The position numbers and the translations under genes are program-made. The notes beneath the pieces are model-generated. The model saw nothing but the letters and a program-made list of their open reading frames with translations, ran no database searches and was not told where the DNA came from. This document shows, one piece after another, positions 9,105 to 52,605 of a stretch of DNA of 64,000 nucleotides. The DNA lies in NCBI RefSeq assembly GCF_058153355.1, contig NZ_CM177019.1; one strand, written 5' to 3'. Each line of letters begins with the position of its first letter. The stretch's first letter is position 1.

Positions 9105-9335
9105 TTGCCGGAGAGCGGCTCCGCCTTATCCGGCCGACATAGATTTATTCCTGTTCACGTACAGATTGTTGGATGCGGCGTAAACGCCTTATCCGACCTG
9201 GATTCTCGTAGGCCGGACAAGACGCGAAGCGTCGCCTCCGGCATGGTGCGCCGAATGTCGGATGCGGCGTAAACGCCTTATCCGACCTACATTTCCGTAG
9301 GCCGGACAAGACGCAAAGCGTCGCCTCCGGCATGG
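9105..9335. repeat. Cluster of REP (BIME-like) elements between gabP and gabT
   Basis: Repeated GCCGGATGCGGCGTAAACGCCTTATCCGACCTAC and GTAGGCCGGACAAGACGCnAAGCGTCGCCTCCGGCATG units in alternating orientation. Confidence 0.75.
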
Positions 9336-48818: not shown

Positions 48819-49181
48819 TGGTGGAGCTGGCGGGAGTTGAACCCGCGTCCGAAATTCCTACATCCTCGGTACTACATGCTTAGTCAGTCTTTACATTCGC
48901 TTGCCAGCTGCGGACGGACACGCCACTAACAAACTAGCCTGATTAAGTTTTAACGCTTCAACCCCAGGCAGGGCTTCCACGCGATCTCTTTTGGGTTTGA
49001 CCTCTCTTGATCCCCGTCCTAAGAGCGGAGGCTAGGGAGAGAGGGCTCTAAGCAGGTTATTAAGCTGCTAAAGCGTAGTTTTCGTCGTTTGCGACTATTT
49101 TTTGCGGCTTTTTACGAGGCCAACCGCCCCTCGGCATGCACCTTGGGTTTCGCAAATCCCGTCGAATCCAGAATCAGCCCC
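48819..49181 (-). ncRNA. ssrA: tmRNA (SsrA)
   Basis: Reverse complement reads GGGGCTGATTCTGGATTCGACGGGATTTGCG...GTTCAACTCCCGCCAGCTCCACCA (363 nt), with the tag-peptide reading frame region. Confidence 0.95.
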
Positions 49182-50009: not shown

Positions 50010-50486
50010 ATGATATTATTTGTTGGATTTTTGTTGATGGAAATTGTTATGCCTCAGATTAGCCGGACCGCACTGGTACCCTACAGCGCGGAGCAAATGT
50101 ATCAGTTAGTGAATGACGTTCAGTCTTATCCTCAGTTTTTGCCGGGTTGTACCGGAAGTCGGATTCTGGAGTCCACCCCTGGGCAGATGACCGCGGCGGT
50201 AGATGTCTCTAAGGCTGGGATCAGCAAAACGTTTACTACCCGCAACCAGTTGACCAGTAACCAAAGTATTCTTATGAATCTGGTGGATGGGCCGTTCAAG
50301 AAATTGATCGGTGGATGGAAGTTTACGCCGCTGAGCCAGGAGGCGTGTCGTATCGAGTTTCATCTCGACTTTGAGTTTACCAATAAGTTGATTGAACTCG
50401 CCTTTGGCCGCGTGTTTAAAGAGCTGGCGGCTAATATGGTCCAGGCTTTTACGGTTCGTGCGAAAGAGGTTTACAGTGCCAGGTAA
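50010..50486 (+). CDS. ratA: Ribosome association toxin RatA (YfjG, polyketide cyclase/SRPBCC fold)
   Basis: 158-aa ORF; K-12 synteny after smpB. Confidence 0.8.
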
Positions 50487-50766
50487 AATTGCCGTTGAGG
50501 TGGCTTATGCTCTACCTGAGAAGCAGTACCTGCAGCGCGTGACGCTGCAGGAGGGCGCGACGGTTGAAGAAGCTATTCGCACCAGTGGCTTGCTGGAATT
50601 GCGTACCGATATCGATTTAACTAAAAACAAAGTCGGCATTTACAGCCGTCCGGCAAAACTGAGCGATACCGTGCATGATGGCGATCGGGTGGAGATTTAT
50701 CGTCCTCTCATTGCCGATCCGAAAGAGCTTCGCAGGCAACGAGCAGAAAAATCAGCGAATAAATAA
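50476..50766 (+). CDS. ratB: RatB (YfjF, UPF0125)
   Basis: 96-aa ORF (V/M)[26 protein letters not shown]... from GTG overlapping the ratA stop. Confidence 0.8.
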
Positions 50767-50792
50767 CAGACAGAAAAAGGTGCTCATTGAGC

Positions 50793-52218
50793 TAATGCCG
50801 ATCAGTTAAGGATCAGTTGACCGATCCAGTGGCTGTGTAAGAATCCGGAAACGCTCACTTGTTTCCGGATTTTTTTATGCACATTGGACAGGCTCTTGAT
50901 CTGGTATCCCGTTACGATTCTCTGCGTAACCCACTGACTTCTCTGGGGGATTACCTCGACCCCGAACTCATCTCTCGTTGCCTTGCCGAATCAGGTACTG
51001 TAACGCTACGCAAGCGCCGTCTTCCCCTCGAAATGATGGTCTGGTGTATTGTTGGCATGGCGCTTGAGCGTAAAGAACCTCTTCACCAGATTGTGAATCG
51101 CCTGGACATCATGCTGCCGGGCAATCGCCCCTTCGTTGCCCCCAGTGCCGTTATTCAGGCCCGCCAGCGCCTGGGAAGTGAGGCTGTCCGCCGCGTGTTC
51201 ACGAAAACAGCGCAGCTCTGGCATAACGCCACGCCGCATCCGCACTGGTGCGGCCTGACCCTGCTGGCCATCGATGGTGTGTTCTGGCGCACACCGGATA
51301 CACCAGAGAACGATGCAGCCTTCCCCCGCCAGACACATGCCGGGAACCCGGCGCTCTACCCGCAGGTCAAAATGGTCTGCCAGATGGAACTGACCAGCCA
51401 TCTGCTGACGGCTGCAGCCTTCGGCACGATGAAGAACAGCGAAAATGAGCTTGCTGAGCAACTTATAGAACAAACCGGCGATAACACTCTGACGTTAATG
51501 GATAAAGGTTATTACTCACTGGGACTGTTAAATGCCTGGAGCCTGGCGGGAGAACACCGCCACTGGATGATACCTCTCAGAAAGGGAGCGCAATATGAAG
51601 AGATCAGAAAACTGGGTAAAGGCGATCATCTGGTGAAGCTGAAAACCAGCCCGCAGGCACGAAAAAAGTGGCCGGGACTGGGAAATGAAGTGACAGCCCG
51701 CCTGCTGACCGTGACGCGCAAAGGAAAAGTCTGCCATCTGCTGACGTCGATGACGGACGCCATGCGCTTCCCCGGAGGAGAAATGGCGGATCTGTACAGT
51801 CATCGCTGGGAAATCGAACTGGGATACAGGGAGATAAAACAGACGATGCAACTGAGCAGGCTGACGCTGAGAAGTAAAAAGCCGGAGCTTGTGGAGCAAG
51901 AGCTGTGGGGTGTCTTACTGGCTTATAATCTGGTGAGATATCAGATGATTAAAATGGCGGAACATCTGAAAGGTTACTGGCCGAATCAACTGAGTTTCTC
52001 AGAATCATGCGGAATGGTGATGAGAATGCTGATGACATTGCAGGGCGCTTCACCGGGACGTATACCGGAGCTGATGCGCGATCTTGCAAGTATGGGACAA
52101 CTTGTGAAATTACCGACAGGAAGGGAAAGGGCCTTCCCGAGAGTGGTAAAGGAGAGGCCCTGGAAATACCCCACAGCCCCGAAAAAGAGCCAGTCAGTTG
52201 CTTAACTGACTGGCATTA
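50793..52218 (+). mobile_element. IS4 (1426 bp) with 11-bp TSD GCTCATTGAGC
   Basis: Ends TAATGCCGATCAGTTAAGG... and ...CTTAACTGACTGGCATTA; TSD at 50782-50792 and 52219-52229; length matches IS4. Confidence 0.9.
50877..52205 (+). CDS. IS4 transposase
   Basis: 442-aa [34 protein letters not shown]... (start at Met7 of the track ORF). Confidence 0.9.
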
Positions 52219-52263
52219 GCTCATTGAGCACCTTTTTTAACGTCTTTGAGAGCAACTTTATTA

Positions 52264-52605
52264 TTAGTTACCACTCAGCGCAGGTTTGTTATCAATGTTG
52301 GTCAACACCCCGCTACTGTTAAAGGTCAGCGTCAGCGTTTGCTGCGTTACACCTTCATGACCTGGTTGCTGGCGGAAGACATAGAACCAGGTATTCGTAC
52401 CAAATGGATCGGACATCAGCGGTGTACCCAATGCGTACGCAACTTGTTGTTGCGTCATGCCAACACGTATTTTGGATACGTCGTTAGCGGTCAGATAGTT
52501 CCCCTGGTTGATGTCAGGACGGTAAACCACTCGCTCCAGAGTGGAACAGCCTGCGGTCAACATCAATAGTACTGCTGCTGCAGCAGTCAGCGTTTTACAG
52601 CGCAT
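52264..52605 (-). CDS. bamE: Outer membrane protein assembly factor BamE (SmpA)
   Basis: 113-aa lipoprotein [41 protein letters not shown]... Confidence 0.9.

Follow-up and report, generated by a model that had tools for sequence, protein, structure and literature searches.

An intact copy of the insertion sequence IS4 interrupts the short intergenic region where yfjF (ratB) and bamE converge in the 64,000-nucleotide stretch of DNA analysed here (the window), at a position that IS4 has occupied repeatedly. We consider it likely that IS4 was targeted to a two-way terminator shared by the two genes and that its own inward-facing hairpins replace the lost ones, with a near-neutral outcome. The element would have transposed into an intrinsic terminator common to both convergent genes.

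The insertion is an intact IS4 element

The inserted segment, which was read and cut out by script, is 1426 bp long (50793-52218, + strand). Its left terminal inverted repeat, TAATGCCGATCAGTTAAG (50793-50810), agrees with the right one (52201-52218) at 16 of 18 positions, compared with 0.07 such matches expected by chance per window. A single long open reading frame, intact from the ATG at 50877 to the stop codon at 52205 on the + strand, encodes the 442-aa transposase InsG. The protein contains the Pfam domains Nterm_IS4 (3.3e-33) and DDE_Tnp_1 (8.8e-32), and the Y-2-R-3-E-6-K (YREK) motif defined by De Palmenaer et al. 2008 (PMC2266710) is present in the translation. The nucleotide sequence differs from the IS4 annotated in K-12 MG1655 at 4 of 1426 positions (99.7% nt identity) and the InsG protein from its K-12 counterpart by 3 aa; no exact-protein match for the window transposase variant, in either its 442-aa or its 448-aa form, was on record. 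The length, the ends, the single DDE reading frame, the near-identity to the reference and the duplication size are all those of IS4. The element is thus IS4 itself (IS4 family, IS4 subgroup), as a sequence-only reading of the window had proposed, and it is apparently intact. With the reading frame and both ends preserved, the copy is active-looking.

The window element and the K-12 copy (insG, the IS4-family type element) have in common the length of 1426 bp, 18-bp imperfect terminal repeats, a 442-aa DDE transposase, the YREK motif and an 11-13-bp duplication. They differ by the 4 nt (3 aa) mentioned above and by location: the resident K-12 IS4 lies between yjgZ and nanX, at a site that is not terminator-like. 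No further IS copies were seen in the rest of the window in the comparisons run, unlike a Shigella-type IS load.

Inward-facing hairpins at both ends of IS4

A hairpin facing inward is found at each end of the element. The left one (50839-50876, + strand), a putative terminator or occluder for yfjF transcripts, has arms at 50839-50852 and 50861-50874. Its sequence, AAGAAUCCGGAAAC...GUUUCCGGAUU, is followed by U7 and ends exactly at the transposase ATG; the structure folds with -16.8 and -18.9 kcal/mol (z = -6.2). A consensus terminator scan gave no call on the left hairpin, probably because some of the T-run is taken up into the maximal stem. The same scan flagged the right hairpin (52182-52214, minus strand), a putative terminator for bamE transcripts, which consists of GCCAGTCAGTT/AACTGACTGGC (52214 down to 52189) followed by TCTTTTT. 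In the minus-strand RNA it reads GCCAGUCAGUU-AAGC-AACUGACUGGC and then UCUUUUU, an interrupted U-tract, with folding energies of -17.5 and -18.7 kcal/mol (z = -4.6). The transposase stop codon sits in the loop of this hairpin. On the plus strand no U-tract follows 3' of the right-end hairpin, and transposase mRNA may for this reason read out of the right end, antisense to bamE.

A putative transposase promoter was recognised at 50817-50844 (+ strand), composed of TTGACC, a 16-nt spacer and AAGAAT preceded by TG. Its -10 element and the beginning of the left hairpin's 5' arm overlap. Transcription from this promoter-like site would initiate inside the 5' arm, so that the transposase mRNA would escape termination, and the left hairpin probably also prevents outside transcription from driving the transposase. 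Its main effect could be on translation instead of termination, through occlusion of the start region. Inspection by eye of the IS4 ends yielded no convincing candidate for an outward-facing or hybrid promoter; a promoter-like site at 52237-52264 belongs to the native flank.

The transposase genes of IS10 and IS50 are known to be shielded from outside transcription by fold-back inhibition of translation. In external transcripts a 5' segment pairs with the transposase start, and transcripts from the element's own promoter are made without that segment. The left end of IS4 appears to follow the same logic. Unlike IS10 and IS50, the IS4 structure also resembles a full intrinsic terminator (U7) and is accompanied by a second inward hairpin at the other end.

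The arrangement recurs in relatives of IS4. A hairpin and U-tract lie directly 5' of the transposase start in the relatives L028, L029, L031 and L032, in which the stems are unrelated in sequence (z = -3.9 to -5.2). In IS4 and these same four elements a promoter-like TTGAC/AC is followed by a 16-nt spacer and a -10 at the foot of the hairpin. The relative from Ralstonia has its hairpin and U-tract at the very left end instead. Conservation of the right-end hairpin is partial, as it is found in L028, L031 and L032 and is absent from L029 and L030.

IS4 splits a palindrome between yfjF and bamE

The gene upstream of the insertion, yfjF (ratB; 50476-50766, + strand), encodes an RnfH-family protein (Pfam Ub-RnfH, E = 3.7e-35), in agreement with the RefSeq annotation of homologous loci. 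On the other side lies bamE (52264-52605, minus strand; Pfam BamE, E = 1.2e-27). Both genes are intact, with the yfjF stop codon 26 nt before IS4 and the bamE stop codon 45 nt from its right end; in a strain with an empty site the BamE, YfjF and RatA proteins have exactly the same sequences (100% identity). The neighbourhood comprises ssrA (48819-49181, minus strand; Rfam tmRNA), smpB, ratA and yfjF on the left and bamE and recN on the right. An Rfam scan returned no family in the intergenic region or in IS4; its hits in the window were limited to tmRNA, one tRNA and naRNA4.

An exact 11-bp direct repeat, GCTCATTGAGC, adjoins both ends of IS4 (50782-50792 and 52219-52229), confirming the duplication length given by the sequence-only reading. 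Three copies of the 11-mer are present in the window, where 0.06 would be expected. The third copy (2212-2222) was attributed to chance, being located inside a coding sequence with neither an IS end nor a palindrome adjoining. The two copies next to IS4 are the target-site duplication, and the left one comprises the loop and four inner stem pairs of a terminator-like hairpin. Outside the left copy are an A5 tract (50774-50778) and the outer stem arm GGT (50779-50781), which together form the left outer part of the split structure (50774-50781). The right outer part (52230-52238) consists of the complementary arm ACC (52230-52232) and a T6 tract (52233-52238). Other E. coli strains, K-12 MG1655 included, have A6 in place of A5. 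Excision of IS4 in silico and removal of one repeat copy restored the site AAAAAGGTGCTCATTGAGCACCTTTTTT, and longer extracts of the reconstructed pre-insertion site read ACAGAAAAAGGTGCTCATTGAGCACCTTTTTTAACG and CAGAAAAAGGTGCTCATTGAGCACCTTTTTTAACG. An assembly artefact was ruled out by the exact duplication, the canonical ends and an identical junction in two independent public assemblies.

The target is the one that the sequence-only reading proposed, a terminator-like palindrome lying between the two convergent genes. The same reading had each side keeping only half of the hairpin; the structure is indeed split, but each side retains more than half, namely the loop and four inner pairs. Staggered cuts 3 bp inside the A-tract and 3 bp inside the T-tract would account for the duplication of the 11 central base pairs of the hairpin.

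IS4 and its relatives favour terminator-like targets

The window site, A5 GGT [11 bp] ACC T6, has the geometry of a preferred target, in which about 17-19 bp separate the two tracts and the duplication occupies the middle of that interval. Four further E. coli insertions share this tract geometry, as do four relatives of IS4 and insertions in Kosakonia. The E. coli insertions (duplication in brackets) are at crr/pdxK (AAAAATGG[CGCCCATCGGCG]CCATTTTTTT, 12 bp), at rpsO/pnp (AAAAGGG[GGCCTGAGTGG]CCCCTTTTTT, 11 bp) and at lpp/ldtE, a terminator struck twice, in EC6868 with a duplication of 12 bp (AAAAATGGC[GCACATTGTGCG]CCATTTTTTTT) and in ECamp52 with one of 13 bp (AAAAATGG[CGCACATTGTGCG]CCATTTTTTTT). 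All of them present the A-tract, GC-rich hairpin and T-tract seen at yfjF/bamE, with cuts about 3 bp inside the tracts and a loop-centred duplication. At every one of these E. coli sites IS4 cut 3-4 bp inside each tract, so that subtracting 6 or 7 from the tract spacing gives the length of the duplication. The crr/pdxK site belongs to another gene pair and is occupied in many genomes, as compared with 3 of 5426 for yfjF/bamE.

A scan of genome contigs for the IS4 left end returned no E. coli locus but provided an independent host, with 16 left junctions in the draft genome of Kosakonia oryziphila. An A-tract is present at -24 to -13 in 12 of the 16 left junctions (10% in the random control), and 7 of the 16 combine an A-tract with a self-complementary end (control 0.44%, p = 3.5e-13). 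Similarly, of five IS4-subgroup relatives (transposase identity 35-96%), four have inserted into terminator-like hairpins and are flanked by centred duplications of 10-12 bp; these four are carried by plasmids of Salmonella, Ralstonia, Vibrio tapetis and Klebsiella. The A/T-tract palindrome is absent at the resident K-12 IS4 site, at 4 of the 16 Kosakonia junctions and in the relative L029. The preference of IS4 for terminators is therefore strong, not absolute.

The classical IS4 target consensus is the pseudo-palindrome AAA-N20-TTT, for which Mahillon & Chandler 1998 is among the sources. The yfjF/bamE site conforms to it. An IS4 insertion in the pheST attenuator terminator was reportedly described by Mayaux et al. 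in 1984, the IS4 sequence itself is said to have been the subject of a paper by Klaer et al. in 1981, and Lee et al. reportedly recorded 8 de novo IS4 insertions in 2016. De Palmenaer et al. 2008 (PMC2266710) described the target arms of the IS4 subgroup, left as well as right, as showing 'spectacular' conservation. The sequence-only reading had overlooked that terminators of this kind are the preferred target of IS4, which makes the location in the window an expected one.

Comparable target choices are found in other mobile elements. IS231A and IS4 belong to the same IS family. Hallet et al. in 1994 reportedly found that IS231A targets GGG-N5-CCC flanked by bent A/T-rich DNA, so that a symmetric GC core between A/T tracts is common to both elements. 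This suggests DNA-shape recognition on both target arms. IS231A differs in subgroup, core and spacing, and is not known to be linked to terminators. Bacterial class C group II introns home to DNA after intrinsic terminators. IS1397/ISKpn1 and others insert in REP sequences (PMC1525189). These elements share with IS4 the use of intergenic hairpins as low-cost landing sites; they differ in enzymes and recognition, IS4 making symmetric cuts within the hairpin so that the central part is duplicated. Taken with the E. coli, Kosakonia and plasmid sites, the insertion in the window would be a targeted event, IS4 and its relatives favouring an A-tract, a GC-rich palindrome and a T-tract whose spacing sets the length of the duplication (10-13 bp).

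Independent insertions at the same phosphodiester bonds

The site is uninterrupted in 5422 of 5426 complete E. coli genomes, and K-12 MG1655 likewise has the palindrome without IS4. The element is present at the identical position in three of the 5426 (two in the same orientation, one inverted) and is no conserved feature there. In TW10690 and BEN5202 IS4 has entered at the very bonds used in the window, with the window's orientation and duplication, the BEN5202 copy being frameshifted; in MB31 the element occupies these bonds in the opposite orientation. The window copy differs from those of TW10690 and BEN5202 by 9-12 nt and from IS4 copies at other loci by only 2-4 nt, and the flanks of the window also differ from those of these two strains. 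Between TW10690 and MB31 the flanks are nearly identical and the orientation of the IS is opposite. The differences in orientation, IS4 copy and flanks together indicate at least three independent insertions on one phosphodiester pair, and the yfjF/bamE site is a recurrent IS4 hot spot. IS4 is annotated at this position in three RefSeq genomes, which makes it an already known element in a typical target.

The insertion is inherited within the window's own lineage. Over 5686 bp, two public assemblies, GCA_043012465.1 (contig DAXYJU010000083.1) and a Logan assembly of SRR8656992, match the window at 100% identity; both break inside IS4 and contain the bamE-side junction seen here. The site is empty in two metagenome contigs that code for an identical RecN protein and whose DNA identity is 96.6-97.2%. 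The core genes of the window are at most 99.0% identical to those of any of the 5426 complete E. coli genomes.

Recurrence at one site could also be the product of selection with no transposase preference. The insertion would then be adaptive, with loss of the terminator altering expression of bamE and/or ratA-yfjF by way of longer 3' UTRs, antisense read-out or transcriptional interference. This would fit the repeated independent insertions (at least three), the occurrence of the insertion in other public assemblies of the window's lineage and a transposase mRNA that has no clear terminator before the bamE antisense strand. Against it, the occupied genomes are few (3/5426) and include both orientations; the coding sequences are unchanged, and replacement terminators are predicted within the element. 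The terminators at crr/pdxK, lpp/ldtE and rpsO/pnp, unrelated to this locus, are struck with the same geometry, and the relatives behave alike on plasmids of other genera. Transposase targeting therefore accounts for the recurrence without selection, and we regard an adaptive origin as improbable.

It is less likely still that a single ancient insertion was spread by descent or recombination, with no hot spot at all. TW10690 and BEN5202, which share orientation and duplication and whose IS4 copies are similar (3 differences), could indeed go back to one event. A single event does not readily account for the inverted element at the same bonds in MB31, for the opposite orientations within the near-identical flanks of TW10690 and MB31, or for a window copy closer to IS4 at other loci than to the copies at its own. 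Close relatives of the window by RecN protein, moreover, have an empty site.

Predicted termination before and after the insertion

By sequence criteria, the pre-insertion palindrome is a two-way intrinsic (Rho-independent) terminator. The native hairpin, GGUGCUC-AUU-GAGCACC (-10.1 kcal/mol), has a 7-bp stem with 5 GC pairs and a 3-nt loop, and a U-tract follows directly 3' of it on either strand (U6 on the plus strand, U5-6 on the minus strand). The stem begins 12 nt past the yfjF stop codon and 35 nt past that of bamE, and the whole empty site folds with -17.6 kcal/mol (z = -6.4 compared with shuffles). The idea that the palindrome is instead a protein-binding site or a REP-like repeat, to which termination would be irrelevant, has hardly any probability in our judgement, given this stem, loop and pair of U-tracts, the position just past the stop codons of two convergent genes, the lack of any Rfam family at the site and the fact that GCTCATTGAGC is not a repeat family in the window.

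Each IS4 junction retains a 4-bp mini-hairpin (-2.5 kcal/mol) together with one outer arm and one A/T tract, and an incoming transcript loses three outer pairs and the U-tract. Compared with shuffles, the remnants show no appreciable gain in stability (z = -0.5 and -0.35). With the U-tract also gone, the native terminator is predicted to be destroyed for both genes. This bears out the first part of the sequence-only reading, which had expected altered termination with possible read-through; its account of the consequence was incomplete, since IS4 contributes inward hairpins of its own. Each of these exceeds the native hairpin in stability. Since a hairpin and U-tract face inward at either end, transcripts running into the IS probably do not get far: those of yfjF would probably stop about 85 nt into the element and those of bamE after about 37 nt. 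The inward hairpins would thus most likely halt the incoming transcripts where the native terminators no longer can, leaving both mRNAs with just a short 3' extension and making the insertion close to neutral.

Discussion

The locus itself appears to be of little consequence. With yfjF, ratA and bamE intact, the insertion is a rare lineage-specific polymorphism in a typical IS4 target. The site and its 11-bp duplication provide a clean lineage marker. Short-read assemblies of the window's lineage break at the insertion.

A broader idea can be put forward tentatively, and we give it slightly less than an even chance of being right: the elements of the IS4 subgroup may be specialised in seeking and replacing terminators. 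The transposase would read the A- and T-tract arms of a terminator, whose spacing would set the duplication at 10-13 bp, and the element's own inward terminators would keep the neighbouring genes terminated, the left one being bypassed only by its own promoter. The idea as a whole was not found in the papers that were searched. If it is true, two-way terminators would constitute a built-in safe harbour for IS4, which would account for the low-cost expansion of the element in Shigella, EIEC and Kosakonia. The repeated landing in terminators and the conserved inward hairpins bear on how transposons choose their targets and on what IS expansions cost.

Sequence features around the insertion

Immediately to the left of the IS4 copy lying within the yfjF (ratB)/bamE terminator hairpin, the A-tract at window positions 50774-50778 consists of five adenines (A5). 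The corresponding tract is A6 in K-12, in 2013C-4282, in the three E. coli genomes with IS4 at the same yfjF/bamE bonds (TW10690, BEN5202 and MB31), and in two metagenome contigs. Once IS4 is inserted, the A-tract no longer has a role as the U-tract of bamE, so the loss of one nucleotide could be neutral. The A5 tract could equally be a polymorphism of the lineage or a sequencing error in the homopolymer.

The consensus terminator scan of the window did not flag the strong hairpin with U7 at 50839-50876, which faces inward from the left end of IS4. This is probably because the maximal stem takes in the T-run, leaving too few T residues after the stem. Negative results of the scan are therefore to be weighed against this miss.

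Two further RNA features were matched by Rfam in the window, namely naRNA4, a REP-derived nucleoid-associated RNA, on the minus strand at 9211-9287 (71 bits) and a tRNA on the plus strand at 17522-17594; neither has a connection to the IS4 insertion.

An island is integrated at ssrA, the tmRNA gene (48819-49181), and occupies about 26000-48800, to the left of the gene. Its content was assigned by comparison with strain FEX669 and comprises an integrase, a DEAD/DEAH helicase with a DUF2290 partner, a 1283-aa hypothetical protein, a GTPase, YfjI, DUF932, RadC, and a YeeU/CbtA toxin-antitoxin pair. Among 5426 complete E. coli genomes, coverage of the island reaches 80% or more in just one. The helicase/DUF2290 pair together with the giant ORF might constitute a defence module.

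IS4 left ends in assemblies of other genera

At least 16 contigs of Kosakonia oryziphila REICA_142 carry an IS4 left end, with 30 nt identical to the E. coli element and mostly close to the contig ends. In this plant-associated enterobacterium, which belongs to neither Escherichia nor Shigella, IS4 has undergone an expansion. Photorhabdus khanii NC19 also bears an exact 30-nt left end at position 1089; a right end sought within 1600 bp of it gave no match, and the element may be a truncated or variant IS4. A left end was likewise detected in a 265-bp contig of the Methylobacterium mesophilicum NBRC 15688 assembly. Its flank is exactly that of the K-12 resident copy (...ACAAACACCAGAACCAAGAT), and the contig is most likely a contamination by E. 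coli K-12.

IS4 in other E. coli terminators

Two independent insertions, in EC6868 and ECamp52, hit the same hairpin of the lpp terminator (lpp/ldtE), with left cuts 1 bp apart and duplications of 12 bp and 13 bp, respectively. This shift of the cut within one hairpin is a direct example of how IS4 duplications come to range from 11 to 13 bp. In E. coli isolate 30859_5#11, IS4 resides within the rpsO terminator, upstream of the co-directional pnp gene. Regulation at this locus normally includes transcription that continues past the terminator into pnp; an IS4 insertion here could therefore matter more than one at convergent sites.
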